Shown here: positions 16,993 to 38,472 of the stretch, piece by piece | Position numbering within the stretch: the stretch's first letter is position 1 | Layout of the letters: the number at the start of each line of letters is the position of its first letter | Source of the DNA: Anolis carolinensis | Lineage: Eukaryota | DNA length: 64,000 bases | NCBI RefSeq assembly: GCF_035594765.1 | Contig: NC_085843.1 | Location: forward strand, 19,173,955 to 19,237,954 | Direction of reading: 5' to 3' | Translations under genes and position numbers: made by a program | The notes under the pieces: model-generated | Told to the model about the DNA's origin: nothing | What the model saw: only the letters and a program-made list of their open reading frames with translations | Databases searched by the model: none

Positions 16993-17215
16993 CTCCTCTT
17001 CCTCGTCGGGCTCCTCCTCGAGCTGTAGGATTCTGGCCCCGTCCACCCCTCCCGCGGCTTCTCCCTCGGCCTCTGCCTCGGCTGGACACAGAAGCATCAT
17101 CTGAATCTTCATTTGATTTCATTTCATAGCTTAAAGCCTCCATCAGGTCGTCATCACTAATAAAAGAAGCATCATCATCACGTTGAGACCTGTGGGCTTT
17201 TGCCCTGTTTATAGC
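16993..17215 (-). CDS. MRE11: MRE11 exon 15, GAR (RG-rich) domain
   Basis: Translates AINRAKAHRSQ...SRGRGRGRSRGRGGRGQNPTARGGARRGRG; 223 nt; donor G|GTCTGT gives phase 1, matching exon 16. Confidence 0.92.
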
Positions 17216-19883: not shown

Positions 19884-20989
19884 TGTCAAGAGTCAGACGC
19901 CAGTTAACATACAAAACAAAGTTTATTCCGAAGATAAGCCAAAAAATAACATAAACACAGGAAATATGCTTGAAACACTTCACTTTTCAGTGTTTTGAGA
20001 GTAGATCGGACAATAACAACTCAAAAACGAGCCACGCTAATTCCCCATGCTGGCATTCAATAAAAAACTAAATAACGCTTCAATTCAGCTTTGGAAAACA
20101 AATAGTGTTAATTGCTGGAAAATAAACAAACTAGAAAAGCAGTAAAGCTGCTTCCATGGTGCAGATAAGCCGGGAGCCTCAAAGGGATGATGAATAGCCG
20201 TCGTCAGAAGAATCCAAGGTCAGGTCAGGAGGCAGCAGAAATTCCGAAAGACAAACCAATAGTCAGAAGCCGGGAGTAGCCGTCAGTCAGAGGACGTAGA
20301 CAGAAGCCAGGTCAAATTCAATCCAAAGTCCGAAGAGGGTGCAGTCATCCAAAACAGGTCCACGATAAGACACAGCGAGAGCCAAGCTAGATGATATCAG
20401 CAGATTCAAATCATAGTCCGAGTCCAGTCTTCATGGAAACACAGAGATCCCAATGGCGCCTCAGCAACACCTTGCCACACGCAAAGTGCAGTGGCCAAAC
20501 ATTCCCATTTTATTCCCCTTCCTCCTGGGTGACCAAACACTCACACCCAAACACCAGGTGTCCCAAATCTACTCAGAGTCTGAACTCCACACAGCTAGAG
20601 CTCGTGGATCTGGAGTACCTAGCAATTCGTCGGAGTCCCAATCATCCTGCCCACACTTAGCCCTATGAACACTTAAAGAACCATCCTCCCTTCTCCAAGC
20701 ATCCCAATTGGGATCAGCTCCTGCAGAAACCCCAGGTTCAGAAGTATCCATAAGCCCCAAATCCCCAGACATCTCCGGTGGCTGTGCCCATTCAGTGCCT
20801 GCTTCCCCAGCCACCACCTGTTCCTCAGCATCCATCTCCCCATCTGAATCTTCCTCAGAAGATCCCCCATATAGCTCTCTAAGTCGCTTCCTGCGCAACT
20901 CCTCCAGTGAACCCTCATCACGAGGGTTTTTTCTTCCTCTTCGAATTCCATCACCATCAACCATAATCCCCGAAGGCGCAGTCACAACA
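19884..20989 (-). repeat. 3' LTR
   Basis: Direct repeat of 25285-26390, preceded on the minus strand by the polypurine tract GGGGAGGGATAG (21001-20990). Confidence 0.97.
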
Positions 20990-22582
20990 CTATCCCTCCC
21001 CGCAAAGGCCCCACCCACTGGAATTAATGTGGGATCCGAGACCTCTGTAATTACTGAGGGCCTGTTACATGATGTGTCCAGTTTCAGTAAAGACCGGTGA
21101 AACACCGGATGAACCTTCAGCGTGGAAGGCAATCGCAATTGAAACGCCACAGGAGAGACCTTAGTAACAATGGGGAAAGGACCTAAGTACCGAGCCCCAA
21201 ATTTCCCCGCATGCGTCCTGATATGCTTAGCAGACAACCACACCATGTCCCCTTCTATCAATTCCACTCCAGGCTGACGATGTTTGTCAGCTTGTGACTT
21301 TTGCGTTGCTTTAGCTTCCACCAGAAGCTTCCTCGCAACGTCTTGCAAGGCCTTGAGTTCACTGGAACGATACACTGGATCCGGCGACACAATATTTTGC
21401 GCAGGCGCTACTACTCCACGTGGATGGCAACCATACATGATTTCAAAAGGCGAGTATTGGCTAGCGCTATGTGTCGCCGCGTTATACGCAAACTCTGCCA
21501 CCGGTACCCATTGAACCCAATCCCCAGCTTGCTGCAAACAAAAACAGCGCAGATACTGTTCTAACAGACCGTTCACCCGTTCAGACTGCCCATCAGTCTG
21601 CGGATGGAATGCAGTAGAGACGTTCAGTTTAGTTCCAAGCTGCGCATGGAACTGTTTCCAAAATTGTGAAACAAACTGCGGCGCTCTGTCCGAAACAATA
21701 ACCTCTGGAGCCCCGTGCAGACGGAAAATATGGCGCACAAATAATTTGGCCAACGTTGTAGCCGCCGGTACTTTAGAGCATGGGATAAAATGAGCCATCT
21801 TGGAAAACAAATCAACCACCACCCAAATACAAGTGTAGCCACCCACCCTAGGCAAATCAGTAATGAAGTCCATGGAAATAATCTGCCAGGGCTTTTCAGG
21901 GACTGGCAGAGGCGACAATAGACCACAGGGCCTACCTACTGGATGTTTACACTGTAGACAAATAGCACAGCTATCGCAGTATTTTAAAATATCCTGCCTC
22001 ATCTTGGGCCACCAATAATGACGAGTAATGGCTTGCACAGTCTTAAACCTGCCAAAATGTCCCGCAGTTGGCTCATCATGATATGCTTGTATGATTTCCA
22101 AGCGTAGTTTACCAGGCGGCACGAAAATCTGCCCATTACGTGATAACACCCCGTCCACATCCTGTAAATTAGGCAGTATAGTTCTCATATCCTGAGAGAG
22201 CAATATCAACTGCTCCTGTGTCCACCTATCCTCTTTTTGAGAAGGCAACACCCGTTCATGAAGATCCTGCCTGTCCTGTACCACATTTAACACTGAAACA
22301 GGTAAAATGGTTTGTTCAAGAAGGATTTCAGCAGTTTTGAACTCAGGCTTCCTAGAAAAAGCATCAGCCCTCAAGTTCTGCTTCCCCTCTACAAATTGTA
22401 CCCTGAAGTCGAACCTGGAAAAGAACAATGCCCACCTAATTTGTCTCTGATTCAGTTTCCTTGCAGTTTGCAAATGTTCCAAGTTTTTATGGTCAGATAG
22501 GACCACTATCTGATGTTTTGCCCCCTCCAACCAATGCCTCCAAACTTCGAAGGCCACCTTGATCGCTAGCAACTCTTTCTCC

Positions 22583-22854
22583 CATAGAATCATAGAATCA
22601 TAGAATAGTAGAGTTGGAAGAGACCACATGGGCCATCCAGTCCAACCCCCTGCTAAGAAGCAGGAAATCGCATTCAAAGCACCCCCGACAGATGGCCATC
22701 CAGCCTCTGCTTAAAAGCCTCCAAAGAAGGAGCCTCCACCACGGCCCCGGGGAGAGAGTTCCACTGTCGAACAGCTCTCACAGTGAGGAAGTTCTTCCTG
22801 ATGTTCAGGTGGAATCTCCTTTCCTGTAGTTTGAAGGGTGGAATCTCCTTTCCT
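22583..22854 (-). mobile_element. 5'-truncated CR1 LINE nested in the Gypsy RNase H
   Basis: (ATTCTATG)n tail; ORF2 end RRFHLNIRKNFLTVRAVRQWNSLP...LEAFKQRLDGHL; splits pol EQNY...WEKELLAI. Confidence 0.93.
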
Positions 22855-24413
22855 GTAGTTTTGTTCAAACGCAGTGAGTTGTCTAGAATAGAAACCACAA
22901 GGTCTTAATCTACCAGACGGGTCCTTCTGCGAGAGTACTGCTCCCAGAGCATAATTAGAAGCATCTGCCTCAACAATGAATGGTTGGTTCACATTTGGAT
23001 GTACTAAAATGTTCCCATTCTGAAAACTACATTTCAGTTGTTCAAAAGCCTTCTTGGCCTCCATAGTCCATTCGAACGGACGCTTCTTTTGCAAGAGTTG
23101 GGTTAACGGCACTGTCAACTGTGCAAAGTGCGGAATAAACTCCCTATAGTAGTTGGCAAAACCCAAAAACCTTTGTACATCCTTCTTGGATGTTAATTCT
23201 TGCCAGGTATTGACAGCGTCCACTTTTCTCGGGTCCATTTTCAGTTCCCTCCCAGATATAACATGTCCCAAAAACTCCACCTCAGACACATGGAAAACAC
23301 ACTTGGAGGCCTTAGCAAATAACCCATTTGCCCTGAGCCTGGACAACACTTGACGCACATGTTCCCCATGTTCGCGAGCGTCTTTCGAAAAAATCAATAT
23401 ATCATCCAAGTAAATCACCACAAATTTGTCTAAAAGGTCCCGGAACACATCATTAATAAATCTTTGAAATACCGCTGGGGCATTACAGAGCCCAAACGGC
23501 ATTAGTAAATTTTCGTAAGCGCCGAAACAGGTGTTAAACGCTGTCTTCCATTCGTCCCCTTCCTTTATACGCACCAAATTATAAGCCCCACGCAGATCTA
23601 ACTTCGTAAAGATGGAAGCTCCCTGAACCCGAGACAACAACTCAGGGATTAGAGGCAAAGGGTACCTGTCCCGAACAGTGTACTTGTTTAGCACACGGTA
23701 GTCGCACACCAGTCTCAAGTCGCCTGTCTTTTTTGCCACAAAAAAGACTGGAGCGGCCGTAGGCGAATTAGAAGGTCTAATGAAACCCTTCTGCAAGTTC
23801 TCATCTAAGTATTCTCTTAAAGCCTGTCTTTCAGGTAGAGTAAGTGCATACAACCTGCCTGCAGGCAACTTAGCACCTTCCACCAATTTGATCGCACAAT
23901 CATAAGGCCTATGTGGTGGTAATTTATCCGCTTCCTTTTGGCAGAACACATCCCAGAAGTCCTGATAACAAGATGGAACTCCCTCCATATCCCCACCAAC
24001 TTCATTTAGGGTTAAACACACCGGAGGGTCCAAACTGATAGTTCTGCGTACCCAATCCACCCGAGGATTGACCTGTGCCAACCAGTCCATGCCTAAAATG
24101 ACATCATATCTAGGTAGTGCAGTGACATCAAAAGTTAACATCCCCTTCTGCCCTTGCACTTGCCAGGTTACACCCGCTGTTTCTTGATCCACCATCCCGG
24201 AATGTAACAACCTTCCATCAGCACCCTCCACCCAAGCTGTGACTTTCTTCTTCACAATTGGAATTTTATTCTTCTCCGCAAAGCTTTGGTCTACGTACGA
24301 AACTGTAGACCCTGAATCCAAAAATGCCTGGGTACTAACTGGTCTCTGACCCATTACACACAATTGTATGGCCACAAACACATGCTTATTCCCCCTAGGC
24401 AATTGCATCATAG

Positions 24414-24459
24414 GCCCTAATGCGCTGGATTCATGGCGCATTAGGGCTGCCCTTTTCCC
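24414..24459 (-). promoter_or_regulatory. -1 programmed ribosomal frameshift signal (gag-pol)
   Basis: G GGA AAA slippery heptamer in the gag frame, 5-nt spacer, then a perfect 12-bp stem GCCCTAATGCGC/GCGCATTAGGGC with a 10-nt loop; pol is in the -1 frame. Confidence 0.88.
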
Positions 24460-25238
24460 GGCAGCTGAGATGGTTTTAGAGTGCAACCATGAGCAAAATG
24501 CCCCCCATTTCCACAGTACAAACACAACCTTAATCGTCTGCGTCTGTCTTTCTCCTCTTGGGACAATTTGCGTTGCATCCCAAGCTGCATGGGTTCTTCC
24601 CCAGAGTTCACAGAAGCACTAGCATGATACTCCACTACTGGAGTCCCACGAGTCTTCTTTCTGAACTCCATTCGAGCCTCTATCCTACGAACTTTGGTTA
24701 CCAGCTCATCCCAATTTTGAGCTGGTTCCACATGAGACAGCTCATCCTGTAAACATTCATTCAACCCAGCAGTAAAAACCAACATAAAAGCATGTTCTCC
24801 CCAGTCCAGTTGATGCTTAAGCAAATTAAACTTATTCAAATAATAAATTAAAGACCCTTTACCCTGCTTTAACCGATATAAAGCCCAACCTGCATTTTCC
24901 TTTTGTAAAGGATCTCCAAACGTCTCATTAAGAGCTGCCTTAAAGTCCACCAAATTATTCTTAATTGGGCTATTGCCCCTAATTACATTGACTGCCCAAC
25001 GCCCCGCTGGCCCAGTTAATAAACTTAAAATAAATGCAACTTTGTTAGTGTCTGTAGGAAACGAAAGATCAGATATTTGCAAAAAATATAAGTCCACTTG
25101 AGCCAAAAAAGTTGGTAGTTTTTCTCTGGTCCCGTCAAAACGTTCAGGCACAATGACCTGTCCTTTAATCTGCTGTGCCCTCTTTAAGGCTACCAATTCC
25201 AATTCCAAAGTGGCCAGCCTGTCGTCCAGCCCAGCCAT
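24441..25238 (-). CDS. gag: Retrotransposon Gag (sushi/PEG10-like capsid plus CCHC zinc knuckle), 265 aa
   Basis: PERFDGTREKLPTFLAQV, LKQG...YLNKF, EEPMQLG and CLYCGNGGHFAHGC; intact ORF. Confidence 0.95.
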   Translation of the reverse strand: MAGLDDRLATLELELVALKRAQQIKGQVIVPERFDGTREKLPTFLAQVDLYFLQISDLSFPTDTNKVAFILSLLTGPAGRWAVNVIRGNSPIKNNLVDFKAALNETFGDPLQKENAGWALYRLKQGKGSLIYYLNKFNLLKHQLDWGEHAFMLVFTAGLNECLQDELSHVEPAQNWDELVTKVRRIEARMEFRKKTRGTPVVEYHASASVNSGEEPMQLGMQRKLSQEEKDRRRRLRLCLYCGNGGHFAHGCTLKPSQLPGKGQP

Positions 25239-25271: not shown

Positions 25272-25282
25272 GCGTGTGGCAA
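25272..25282 (-). promoter_or_regulatory. Self-priming primer-binding site (not tRNA-type)
   Basis: TTGCCACACGC lies 2 nt after the 5' LTR and is the exact reverse complement of GCGTGTGGCAA inside the LTR (25883-25873). Confidence 0.85.
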
Positions 25283-25284
25283 TC

Positions 25285-26390
25285 TGTCAAGAGTCAGATG
25301 CCAGTTAACATACAAAACAAAGTTTATTCCGAAGATAAGCCAAAAAATAACATAAACACAGGAAATATCCTTGAAACACTTCACTTTTCAGTGTTTCGAG
25401 AGTAGATCGGACAATAACAACTCAAAAACGAGCCACTCTAATTCCCCATGCTGGCATTCAATAAAAAACTAAATAACGCTTCAATTCAGCTTTGGAAAAC
25501 AAATAGTGTTAATTGCTAGAAAATAAACAAACTAGAAAAGCAGTAAAGCTGCTTCCACGGTGCAGATAAGCCGAGAGCCTCAAAGGGATGATGAATAGCC
25601 GTCGTCAGAAGAATCCAAGGTCAGGTCAGGAGGCAGCAGAAATTCCGAAAGACAAACCAATAGTCAGAAGCCGGGAGTAGCCGTCAGTCAGAGGGCGTAG
25701 ACAGAAGCCAGGTCAAATTCAATCCAAAGTCCAAAGAGGGTGCAGTCATCCAAAACAGGTCCACGATAAGACACAGCGAGAGCCAAGCTAGATGATATCA
25801 GCAAATTCAAATCATAGTCCGAGTCCAGTCTTCATGGAAACACAGAGATCCCAATGGCGCCTCAGCAACACCTTGCCACACGCAAAGTGCAGTGGCCAAA
25901 CATTCCCATTTTATTCCCCTTCCTCCTGGGTGACCAAACACTCACACCCAAACACCAGGTGTCCCAAATCTACTCAGAGTCTGAACTCCACACAGCTAGA
26001 GCTCGTGGATCTGGAGTACCTAGCAATTCGTCGGAGTCCCAATCATCCTGCCCACACTTAGCCCCATGAACACTTAAAGAACCATCCTCCCTTCTCCAAG
26101 CATCCCAATTGGGATCAGCTCCTGCAGAAACCCCAGGTTCAGAAGTATCCATAAGCCCCAAATCCCCAGACATCTCCGGTGGCTGTGCCCATTCAGTGCC
26201 TGCTTCCCCAGCCACCACCTGTTCCTCAGCATCCATCTCCCCATCTGAATCTTCCTCAGAAGATCCCCCATATAGCTCTCTAAGTCGCTTCCTGCGCAAC
26301 TCCTCCAGTGAACCCTCATCACGAGGGTTTTTTCTTCCTCTTCGAATTCCATCACCATCAACCATAATCCCCGAAGGCGCAGTCACAACA
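25285..26390 (-). repeat. 5' LTR
   Basis: Direct repeat of 19884-20989; 11 substitutions and no indels by manual comparison. Confidence 0.97.
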
Positions 26391-27608
26391 AAGACAATGG
26401 CAAATGTTCAATGCCAAAAAACCAAAAACAACATATAACAAATCAAAAACAGACTCAATAAGAATTATAATAGTATAAATAAACATAGCATAGCACATCC
26501 CACACTTTCCAACATAAGTTATTAAAAGCTCTTAGAAAGTTCAGCTAAAAATCATTTTTAAAGCTAAGGTGGTATAAGTTAATAGACAAAGGTAGGTAGT
26601 AGTCACTTCCGCAAGAATATATATCGAGATATAGTCATACTACTTAAATATACTATTTTAAAACCTGAAGGAACATTTCTCTAGCAATAACTAGATTCTC
26701 CAGTTCGAAGTTATGGTCACATCCCAGTGAAAGCTAAATACAGAATTGCACTGAAGAATCTAGAGATTCCTAGAGATAAAATGTTAATCAAATCTATAAA
26801 AGTCAAACCTGAAAAGGAGGAAAATTGACTTGTTACTTTTTTACCTATGCTAAAAAGGTAAAAAAAAAATATTTTTCTAATTCGGTTCATTAAAAATGTA
26901 TGTGGCTTTAAGGACTTTTTTTTAGCTTTATGACACACAAGGCAGACTAGTGCACTAACCACTTTATGTCTAGATTTAACTAACTCATCCCCAATGATTA
27001 AGGCTCTCCATGTCCATTGGAACTCTAGAAAATTAAGGTATCAACCAATGTGGTTCTGGATGCTTTCTGCTTCAGATTGTTACTTTGTATACATAGGGAG
27101 GGCAGTGAACTGCATGTGGGTGGACAAGCTTTTGAGAACAAAACTATACAGATAGGATCAACAACAGAAACCCATTATTTCCCCGTACTAGGTATACTGC
27201 ATGATTTATTACAGAACATGATGTGGGAATCCAACACGAAAAATGTTGTTTCTCCAGCCTTCTTGCATTGCCCTTCCCGTGGGGATGCTGCTAAAAAGGG
27301 CCAAAGTGGAGAAAGGACAAGAAAGAAAAGGGGGCTGAGAACATAAAATACACCATTTGCATAAAGGAGCTTCTTTCTTAGGAGCTTTGTTAACTGGGTT
27401 ATGCCTCTATAGTGCTCATTGCTCTTTTGGATTCCTCTCACTTCTATACAATGTGAAATGCTTTCAAAGTGGAGAAATAATGCACAGAAGTCTTTGAGCA
27501 ACAAAATTAAAACTGTTACATTTAGGAAAGTATTTCAACTTGAAATATTTAGAAAGACGTGTTACCTTAAAAGAAATAGCAATGAGTAACAGATTAAAAT
27601 AGGTTTAC

Positions 27609-27712
27609 CTTCTCAGCTGTCTGAAAATACTGCTTTACAAGATCCTCAACCCTCAAAGTTGTTCCCTCTGATGCGGGCTTGCAAACCAGTTTTCCAAAAT
27701 TCATCTCATCTT
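27609..27712 (-). CDS. MRE11: MRE11 exon 12 (DEMNFGKL...[16 protein letters not shown])
   Basis: 104 nt, AG/GT bounded, frame preserved. Confidence 0.96.
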
Positions 27713-28627: not shown

Positions 28628-28805
28628 CTTGAAAAAAAATAGGGGGAAAAGAGAAAGCAGTGTAATATGTAAAATCCATCACTTAGCTGAATGCATTTGG
28701 TAAATTTTTGCCCAAAACATTGGGAAGAACCTCCTGCTGGTTAAGAGTTGTTTAACAGTCAAATAGATTGCCTTGGAGGAAAACTCTCTAACTCCTCTAA
28801 CAGGA

Positions 28806-28930
28806 TCATAGAATCATAGAATAGTAAAATTGGAAGAGACCTCATGGGCCATCCAGTCCAACCCCCTGCCAAGAAGCAGGAAATCGCATTCAAAGCACCC
28901 CCGACAGATGGCCATCCAGCCTCTGTTTAA
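28806..28930 (-). mobile_element. CR1 3' end
   Basis: ATTCTATG tail; nearly identical to the CR1 at 22583. Confidence 0.85.
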
Positions 28931-29167
28931 GAGCCAGGGGGCTGCACTCCCTGCCAAACACTCCACATTGCCTTGGAAGGGAAATTTAAACTCAAATTGC
29001 ACAATGTTTTTGATCCCTCGACTCTCAACTTCTTTTGGGGGGCTTACTTCCTCACCTCTTAAATCAACTTTTGTTGTTTGTTGTGTACCTGTAAGCTGTT
29101 TCCACTTTCAGGCAAATGTACTACAGGGTCCTCTTGATAAAATTTGTTTAGAGGATGATGATGACTA

Positions 29168-36002: not shown

Positions 36003-36164
<162 letters not shown>

Positions 36165-37015: not shown

Positions 37016-37311
37016 CCGTATTTTTCGCTTTATAAGACGCACTTTTTTCCCCTCCAAAATAGAGGGGGAAAGTCAGTGCGTCTTATAAACGCAATCTGCG
37101 TCCAGGAAGGGAGAATGGGGCGATCTGTGCCGTTCGCGCGTGCGGACGGCACAGATCGCCCCATTCTCCCTTCCTGGCGATCTGCGTCCAGGAAGGGAGA
37201 ATGGGGCGATCTGTGCCGTTCGCACGCGCGGACGGCACAGATCGCCCCATTCTCCCTTCCTGGCGATCTGCGTCTTATCATCAGGTGCGTCCTATAAAGC
37301 GAAAAATACGG
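37016..37311. mobile_element. TA-flanked MITE with two tandem internal palindromes, nested in an older element (about 36917-37538)
   Basis: TIRs CCGTATTTTTCGCTTTATAAGACGCAC / GTGCGTCCTATAAAGCGAAAAATACGG; TA TSD. Confidence 0.88.
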
Positions 37312-37907
37312 TAGTTTTTGTGACTGCCACAAACTATGCAGAATTTGTTGAGACTCTATGACACATTAATTGAAAAACTCTATGACACATTAATTGAAAA
37401 ACTATAGAAACATGTGCTGCATGATGTCTTGCAAAAACCAAGTTTTTGCAGTTTAATAAACTTTTCCCAAGTTTTTATGATAGAACCAACTAGGGAATGA
37501 CATTTATAACCCAGGAACAAAAATTGTGTTACATAGTGTATTTATTTATTTAGGAGATCTCTATGCCACCTTTTTCCAGGTGGACTCAAGGTGGCTCACA
37601 TCATTTTAAGATATACATCATAACACAAAACCAAAGATAAAATAAATGATAAAAGTTCCAAGAATGCTCTATAGCATCATCCATATTATAAACAATAAAA
37701 TTAAAATCAGTTTAAAATTCCCCATACGACCATAATGTGCTTAGTAAAGGGTATTTCAAACAGGAAAGTGTAGTCAATGAAAGGAACAAGAGATGTTTTC
37801 AACAGAGTAAACATTTCTGGAGTGTTTTCAAGAGACTAAACTTCTTATTTCTATGAAATATCCTTGCTTTCAATTGTAACTTTATTAAGTGATTAAAGCC
37901 GACTTGC

Positions 37908-38046
37908 CTCATGGTCTTGAGCAAGTTTCAAGATTTCATCGAAAGTTACAAATGTATCATTTCCACGGGCAGCATCCTTCTCCAAATACCCAAGATGAAT
38001 ATCGGTAGCAACTAAAATTTTAAATGTGTCTTTTTCGTCTTCATCC
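37908..38046 (-). CDS. MRE11: MRE11 exon 3 ([19 protein letters not shown]...LAQDHE; phosphoesterase motif I)
   Basis: Manual translation matches the MRE11 N-terminus; acceptor ttttag; donor GAG|GCAAGT (GC type). Confidence 0.95.
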
Positions 38047-38182
38047 CTAAAACAAAAAGTATGAGAAATAATACTGTGACTGCATATTATCGCTTCTTAC
38101 TGTAATAAGTTATTTTGCAAAGTCATAGACTGAATTTATAGAACTTTGCTAATGTACAGTCCTGCTCATTTGATAAAATCAC

Positions 38183-38472
38183 AGAATAATACAGTTGGAA
38201 GAGACCACATAGGTCATCCAGTCCAACCCCCTGCCATGCAGGAAAAGCACAATCAAAGCACCCCCGACAGATGGCTATTCAGTCTGGTTAAATGACTCCA
38301 AAGGAAGAGTCTCCACTACACTGCGAGGCAGAGAGTTCCACTGCTGAACAGCTCTTACAGTTAGGAAGTTCTTCCTATTGTTCAGGTGGAATCTCCTTTC
38401 CTGTAATCTGAACCCATTGCTCTAAATCCAAATTACAGGAAAGGAGATTCCACCTAAACATTAGGAAGAACT
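38183..38472 (-). mobile_element. CR1 3' fragment with inverted duplication at its 5' junction
   Basis: Homologous to 22583-22854. Confidence 0.8.

Follow-up and report, generated by a model that had tools for sequence, protein, structure and literature searches.

Vertebrate chromoviruses of the V clade (Amn/Sushi-like) have been described (PMC2774666), and self-priming is presented as a signature of the Tf1/sushi group (PMC4600332, PMC6317226). The element considered here lies in a window of 64,000 nucleotides of Anolis carolinensis DNA, and resembles the Tf1/sushi V-clade in four features: the LTR-gag-PR-RT-RH-IN-LTR order; the GPY/F (SH3_Tf2-1) module; a self-priming primer-binding site (PBS); and a 5-bp target-site duplication (TSD). 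It differs in that it has no chromodomain and in that its pol frame runs 139 codons into U3. Since the domain order and self-priming agree with this lineage and the chromodomain feature does not, the element is placed as a chromodomain-less offshoot of it. The V clade, which includes Amn-ichi of Anolis carolinensis, is among the closest known systems. In the title of Piskurek et al. (2008), an Anolis element is called chromodomain-containing.

In plant CRM group A, the chromodomain is described as lost, with an unrelated targeting motif, CR, in the 3' LTR, past the polypurine tract (PPT) (PMC3059260, PMC6317226, PMC3605345). In the anole element, too, the pol frame enters the 3' LTR and encodes a C-terminal tail there. 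However, CRM elements use a tRNA-Met primer, target centromeres, and belong to another clade and kingdom, whereas the anole element is self-priming and vertebrate. Profile searches found no match for the anole tail among plant proteins. The likeness would thus be an independent parallel of layout rather than membership, in a comparison of architecture and priming. Given the CRM precedent, an LTR-encoded targeting motif that replaces a chromodomain is not an unprecedented architecture.

Integrase tails that carry short host-binding targeting motifs are found in yeast Ty1 and Ty5. These elements belong to the Copia superfamily, their partners differ, and their tails are not known to be encoded across the PPT. 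They are described as disordered, phosphorylated C-terminal extensions (Ty1-CK2: PMC9673352), as is proposed for the anole tail.

A further comparison is with host proteins whose motifs interact with TFIIS N-terminal domains (TNDs). JPO2/CDCA7L, MLL1, IWS1, and JIL-1 contain such motifs (TIM/IBM) with demonstrated binding, each built within disordered sequence from a helix, an acidic linker containing Ser/Thr, and FxGF (PMC9987994, PMC6877644, PMC10854676). As set out in PMC9987994, the helix and acidic linker of a TND-interacting motif (TIM) are obligate and FxGF is optional; CK2 enhances the interaction; all known LEDGF/HRP2 partners need FxGF, whereas many TIMs do without it; and several human proteins contain TIMs in series. 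According to the same source, TND readers such as LEDGF/HRP2 act as tethers that direct lentiviral integration into the bodies of active genes.

The MRE11 insertion and its anatomy

The element is a self-priming Ty3/Gypsy LTR retrotransposon of 6.5 kb on the minus strand of the window. It sits within an intron of MRE11, in the sense orientation, and a 5-bp TSD, GTCTT, is present on both flanks. The neighboring host exons, also on the minus strand, encode MRE11 residues of about 410–442 upstream of the element (27597..27710, E=1e-11) and about 522–593 downstream (17000..17215, E=2e-10); further MRE11 exons were detected besides these two. The nearest database relatives of the element are Anolis carolinensis proteins.

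All features of the element given below lie on the minus strand, except where noted. Comparison of the LTRs places the 5' copy at 25285..26390 and the 3' copy at 19884..20989, each 1106 nt long, with 11 substitutions between them. The self-priming PBS (25272..25282) is complementary to LTR positions 508–518 through an 11-nt match, and the predicted minimum-free-energy fold of R-U5-PBS forms these 11 consecutive pairs. The self-primer was used to infer a transcript start at 20482, and an AATAAAA in the TATA position (20508..20514) lies 32 nt upstream of it.

Pfam identifies DUF4939, Retrotrans_gag, and Ty3_capsid in gag (24441..25238), which ends in a GGGAAAA heptamer. The pol gene lies in the -1 frame, and is presumably entered by frameshifting at the heptamer. 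Its first part (22861..24460) contains the protease, reverse transcriptase, and start of RNase H according to Pfam; its second (21082..22584) contains the remaining RNase H, the integrase zinc finger and core, and the GPF/SH3_Tf2-1 module. Between them is an inserted repeat of about 280 nt (approximate bounds 22585..22860, no strand assigned), recognized from a tblastn gap and from relatives in the window at 38173–38412, 28802–28935, and other positions. As the repeat breaks pol inside RNase H, this copy is unable to produce a complete polyprotein in its present form.

A pol frame that continues into U3

The frame that encodes the integrase motif VHPVFHRSLLK continues for 170 residues: 30 to the LTR edge, across the PPT, and then 139 sense codons in U3. 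The linker and PPT occupy 20990..21081 (PPT, 21001–20990), as defined by the frame and by alignment with a viper relative; the U3-encoded portion, 139 codons plus TAG, occupies 20569..20989, as defined by the frame and codon analysis. The stop codon (20571–20569) is 55 nt ahead of the AATAAA at 20514. An earlier note, made from the letters of this DNA, had described a read-through of about 140 codons past the PPT into the 3' LTR, quoted part of the peptide, and put the stop about 55 nt before AATAAAA; it was right in each particular. It had also observed that the frame is open in the 5' LTR, where a second copy of the U3 frame does lie. That is correct, yet adds no independent support, because the two LTRs are 99% identical copies.

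Only one of 5000 dinucleotide shuffles was free of stop codons over 138 codons, and none of 5000 over 169 codons. Nevertheless, read-through might be passive: a G-rich PPT and a U3 left open by chance, with the encoded peptide tolerated and its sequence shaped by promoter constraints. Precedents exist, since plant chromoviruses that keep their chromodomain are reported to read through past the PPT (PMC3605345), and a viper relative, P0005, apparently does likewise with its chromodomain in place. Against it stands the codon-level pattern described next.

Variants were taken from public sequencing contigs aligned to the region, and the best-supported 40 of the 57 tail substitutions were each scored singly. 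Within this best-supported set, 24 of 40 are synonymous, against 23–28% expected (p=2.6e-5); 21 of 40 fall at third positions; and crude pN/pS is 0.19–0.25. The excess is specific to the tail frame: the other two sense frames score 6/40 and 8/40 synonymous, and the antisense frame that shares third positions, 16/40. An integrase control gave 21 of 28 synonymous, with crude pN/pS of 0.10–0.14; these 28 come from the best 40 of 67 variants, the others being nine in the linker and three in the tail. The tail variants are drawn from few subfamilies and so are not independent, but the direction of the excess is clear.

One substitution, at 20624, scores as a stop when taken alone. Its codon neighbors also vary, and the single contig that resolves their linkage has a sense codon there; excluding this codon leaves 22 of 37 synonymous. 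The listed tail indels respect the frame as well. Two are 9-nt in-frame insertions between codons at 20835, and the others are insertions of 1–2 nt inside the stop codon only, with the stop retained. Separately, one listed contig piece over the integrase, linker, and tail region shows a single gap. The two LTRs differ at one of 420 coding and 10 of 686 other nucleotides (p=0.06), a contrast to which we give no weight as evidence.

The tail codons of U3 are under purifying selection. Lack of such constraint was among the outcomes that the earlier note had named as fatal to its proposal, and the 24 of 40 synonymous changes (best 40 of 57) against 23–28% expected point the other way. The tail is very probably functional in some way. 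The U3 of the 3' LTR serves as template for the two LTRs alike, so that selection acting on the tail would fix the frame in every LTR. The synonymous excess in one frame only, the in-frame indels, the single open shuffle in 5000, and the equal tail lengths and protein-level conservation across families (below) largely refute passive read-through, which we consider highly improbable.

In what form is the tail made? It is probably translated as the C-terminus of integrase. The alternative is a separate accessory protein, a possibility that the earlier note had also raised; it would be either started at an ATG or cut from pol, and its TIM would recruit elongation factors to transcription of the element instead of guiding integration. 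Retroviral genes can overlap U3. An in-frame ATG close to the LTR start (20962..20964) has a good context (A in position -3, G in position +4) and is a candidate start of a separate U3 product; the sister tails described below have Met at the matching position. The gene models P0016, P0038, and P0039 begin at this LTR-start Met, gene models being predictions, and contig depth over the LTR is far above that over the internal region. On the other hand, transcription is inferred to begin downstream of U3, so that the element RNA contains U3 at its 3' end alone. No sense-strand splice joint occurs among the contigs examined, which cannot prove absence, and the 30-residue linker is constant in four anole sequences, in frame with integrase. 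A separate accessory protein is accordingly an unlikely reading, and rather more so than the import reading discussed below.

None of the contigs listed spans the PPT/LTR junction with 31 letters on each side. Those contig joints that have GATC between their sides resemble ligation products.

Homologous tails and a probable chromodomain loss

A search with the integrase end plus tail identified five proteins among 6718 candidates. Three of these (P0001-3) are clusters of a sister anole family, 77–79% identical over integrase. Among the 37 of 128 members listed across the five clusters, 30 Anolis proteins contain the HPVFH motif; 24 of the 30 have tails of 169–174 aa, and six are shorter. Most listed sister copies thus read through, contrary to the possibility, raised in the earlier note, that the family consensus stops before the PPT.

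Window and sister tails are 38–42% identical, an alignment above all of 1000 shuffles in both halves. The window U3 peptide scores 153 against P0038 and 83 against P0040, values reached by none of 1000 shuffles in either case, and the back half of the window tail alone also matches P0038 (0/1000 shuffles). P0040 is a third, more distant anole sequence, found with E=1e-4 in a profile search of 1.84 billion representatives. Besides P0040, the other three of the four matches in that search were two near-copies from the sister family and a bacterial repeat protein, which was dismissed as a chance match. The alignments indicate that the tail is homologous across anole families. The sister tail, moreover, is probably LTR-encoded as well, because the junction peptide is shared and because gene model P0016 contains two copies of the motif, as expected from a pair of LTRs.

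Other searches returned little. Run against long proteins, a further profile gave 16 matches, with the tail in P0002 and P0003 only and no C-terminal FxGF in the remaining 14. The window tail alone matched none of 4108 longer candidates; metagenome and viral contig scans confirmed none of 598 and 114 pattern matches, respectively; and the ESM Atlas yielded no usable match. Outside Anolis the tail was not found in the protein, metagenome, and viral searches, which sample squamate repeats sparsely.

In the window pol, Pfam recognizes SH3_Tf2-1 and gives no Chromo match, in agreement with the earlier note, which had read pol as lacking a chromodomain. The Pfam check that the note proposed for the last 175 aa found nothing. 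A Chromo match is present in two relatives. The tail follows the SH3 module, where a chromodomain is expected, and so might be a degenerate chromodomain. Every comparison argues otherwise. There is no Pfam match for the window tail up to E=1 or for the sister tails up to E=10, and no match to the viper chromodomain; the structure model predicts one helix and no sheet; and the stretch ahead of the PPT that a chromodomain would fill has 66 fewer residues than in the viper protein. This explanation, which the earlier note had listed as one that would undo its own, scarcely merits credence.

The slot itself is informative. From HRSLL to DSV, viper P0005 has 96 residues, including its chromodomain, whereas all four anole rows have 30 (the linker is of equal length and in frame with integrase in each). 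This difference suggests that the anole lineage deleted the chromodomain from the slot before the PPT. The anole tail appears to be a separate entity, located after the former chromodomain slot. In a tree of 11 rows, with no named reference elements, the four anole rows cluster (100/100) and adjoin the chromodomain-bearing viper row (94/91, not starred).

Beyond its SH3 module and chromodomain, P0005 has the same RDSVV junction string as the anoles, followed by an acidic extension. This extension shows no relationship with that of the anoles: the respective alignment scores are attained by 212 and 883 of 1000 shuffles, and the hhalign probability is 0.2%. As the viper relative carries both a chromodomain and an acidic extension, acidic read-through by itself is no substitute for a chromodomain.

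A candidate TND-interacting motif

AlphaFold2 models the tail as a disordered chain (mean pLDDT 54, pTM 0.17) in which a helix at residues 59–71 is the sole confident element (pLDDT about 82 at residues 61–70). The predicted helix corresponds to 20869..20907. It is preceded by a basic patch, RRGRK (20929..20943), kept in the P0001-3 sisters and a candidate nuclear localization signal (NLS) with the downstream RRKR; it is followed by a Gly/Ser/acidic linker with CK2-type S-x-x-D/E sites (20836..20868), which aligns with the acidic linker and FxGF of the sisters. A helix upstream of the motif, as in the anole tails, is also described for host proteins (PMC10854676).

In the sister tails, the succession of this helix, an acidic linker with Ser/Thr, and FxGF has the anatomy of a TIM. 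FxGF follows the helix motif in all 32 occurrences across P0001-P0040, which represent 31 near-copy proteins and about two independent families. The helix-linker-FxGF pattern arose in 18 of 200,000 shuffles of P0038, a pattern that was defined after the motif had been seen. P0040 contains two FxGF. The end of the helix is conserved as L..L/I-F/Y/L between window and sisters.

In a search of 177,635 sequences, the sole PDB match of P0038 at E<=10 is 6EMO, the LEDGF IBD with JPO2 motif 1 (E=1.6); 12 of 20 residues are identical, across the helix end, linker, and FxGF. The TIM likeness had been spotted before the PDB search was made. The other five of the six tail queries, including the window's own tail, missed the JPO2 motif and gave only chance matches.

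The window copy presents part of this anatomy. It retains the predicted short helix with aliphatic/aromatic anchors, the hydrophobic helix end, and the Ser-rich acidic linker of CK2 type in a disordered region; FxGF, the mark of the LEDGF/HRP2 class, is present in P0001-3 and P0038-40 but is not found in the window tail. Minority contigs (about 3–5% of depth, in three runs) have a 9-nt in-frame insertion that adds Phe, not FxGF, at the site aligned with the sister FxGF. The strongest motif evidence comes from the sister families rather than from the window copy, and the combination of a helix with acidic residues is not a stringent pattern. Trp residues are conserved in the back half of the tail, and the TIM reading gives no account of them. 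The earlier note had imagined a host-factor tether; a candidate for it now exists in the sister tails, although the window's own family is without FxGF.

These features suggest a model, for which we see the balance as about even: the selected, predicted-disordered 170-residue pol tail takes the place of the chromodomain by linking the integration complex with TND proteins of the host on transcribed chromatin. Synthesized as the C-terminal part of integrase, the tail would enter the nucleus by means of its basic patches; CK2 would phosphorylate the Ser-acidic linker; and the helix and FxGF would dock in two pockets of the LEDGF/HRP2 TND, LEDGF or HRP2 being the likely partners of FxGF families. 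Because the PWWP domain of LEDGF/HRP2 reads H3K36me2/3, the model predicts that insertions favor the bodies of active genes over H3K9-methylated chromatin. The window family, having lost FxGF and kept the helix and linker, would bind LEDGF/HRP2 weakly or use another TND protein. A fuller history is offered more tentatively, as less probable than the tether itself: a vertebrate Gypsy lineage swapped its chromodomain, a reader of heterochromatin, for an LTR-encoded linear mimic of the JPO2/MLL1 motif, directing it through LEDGF/p75 or HRP2 to H3K36me3 gene bodies, and the window family then shed FxGF and changed its TND partner.

The proposed outcome, a TND/PWWP reader that leads to active gene bodies, resembles that of lentiviral integrase and LEDGF/p75 (PMC9987994). 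The interface would differ. The site by which HIV integrase binds is described as structurally prearranged rather than as an unstructured motif (PMC10854676), whereas the anole proposal involves a putative linear motif in the LTR-encoded tail of an env-less retrotransposon.

Alternatively, the tail may be a selected part of integrase that serves nuclear import, solubility, or regulation rather than targeting, with the FxGF likeness incidental. The basic patches would then be a bipartite NLS, and the acidic stretch a phosphorylated spacer. RRGxKxPR and RKRL are indeed common to the window tail and P0001-3, and are conserved while the window copy lacks FxGF. Integrases of LTR retrotransposons are described as containing NLSs (PMC3605345), and Ty1 integrase is reported to be a CK2 substrate (PMC9673352). 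However, an NLS needs neither the D-I/L-F/L helix end, nor fixed FxGF spacing, nor the duplication of FxGF in P0040, and P0040 retains RKKL and FxGF but not RRGxK. We judge import or regulation without targeting to be unlikely.

The tethering model would matter for several reasons. Little is known of insertion-site choice by vertebrate LTR retrotransposons, and the tail offers a candidate testable at the level of residues: a 20-residue motif, a likely kinase, and a likely receptor. If the model is true, LEDGF/HRP2 tethering arose outside lentiviruses by imitation of a short linear motif of host proteins, a convergence on the cofactor of HIV through a different interface; a chromovirus lineage exchanged silent for active chromatin as its target; and animals have a counterpart to the CRM solution, a targeting motif in the LTR. 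A single genome contains sister families that have FxGF and a family that lacks it, which provides a natural comparison. A portable tethering peptide, moreover, is of interest for steering non-viral gene-delivery transposases.

Neither a retrotransposon with a TIM/FxGF motif nor a vertebrate Gypsy element with an LTR-encoded pol tail turned up in the literature searched; Repbase or GyDB may already record the long open reading frame. The idea that pogo transposases carry the motif had no match in PMC7386202. As to location, the position of this one insertion, in an intron of MRE11, agrees with the idea of active-gene targeting.

Conservation and change in the tail

The window's element carries a pol extension of roughly 170 residues (the tail). 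Two database relatives that bear a chromodomain, P0005 from the viper Vipera latastei and P0043, also have acidic extensions at their ends. In P0005 this extension comes after the string RDSVVT, identical to the peptide encoded at the junction of polypurine tract (PPT) and LTR in the window. This shared string and the acidic extension that follows it, in a relative known here from its protein alone, suggest that read-through is older than chromodomain loss.

Tail residues 98, 126, and 129 (20790-20695) are tryptophans, all three conserved across three anole families; the string D-P/R-x-W-x-x-W-R is likewise common to these families. Neither the tryptophans nor the string matched anything found in this analysis.

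The tails of sister Anolis families contain an FxGF motif that is absent from the window copy. Exactly at the FxGF column (20835), a minority of contigs assembled from public sequencing runs carry 9-nt in-frame insertions, and loose contig ends nearby suggest additional length variants. The FxGF column is a labile spot of the tail in the window's family.

Copies, subfamilies, and gene models

In each of four runs, summed contig depth over the LTR (20400-20989) exceeds that over integrase (21016-21700) more than 100-fold, a measure that is not equivalent to copy number. This disparity is a hint that solo LTRs, or copies with deletions, greatly outnumber complete elements. Across 21013-21700, the contigs resolve two internal subfamilies about 10% apart (over a 309-nt stretch in run X5, they show 2 and 31 differences), and the differences between them fall mostly at third codon positions.

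In three Anolis gene models (P0009, P0016, and P0039), fragments of pol or the U3 frame are fused with sequence from the host or from a LINE; one example is an isoform of OGFRL1. These fusions probably are annotation artefacts arising from inserted copies, or possibly reflect exonisation.

Transcription and possible frameshifting

In run X15, which may be an RNA data set, the main contig over U3 (20815-21000) extends past the LTR edge to the PPT side, by only 23 nt, below the bridging threshold; this crossing is a weak hint that element RNA is present. A second AATAAA lies at 19927, 44 nt from the LTR end, which, with the inferred transcript start at 20482, implies that R spans about 570 nt and that U5 is very short. 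Where gag ends (24441-24460), there is a GGGAAAA heptamer, with pol in the −1 frame, an arrangement resembling the PEG10 frameshift site.

The enclosing host gene

The element is enclosed, in the same sense, by the host gene MRE11 (17000-38100, minus strand), with exon matches on either side. Judged by their motifs, 36003-36164 and 37896-38096 are further likely exons. Within an MRE11 intron, positions 37091-37262 hold an 86-nt tandem duplication built of inverted GC-rich units.
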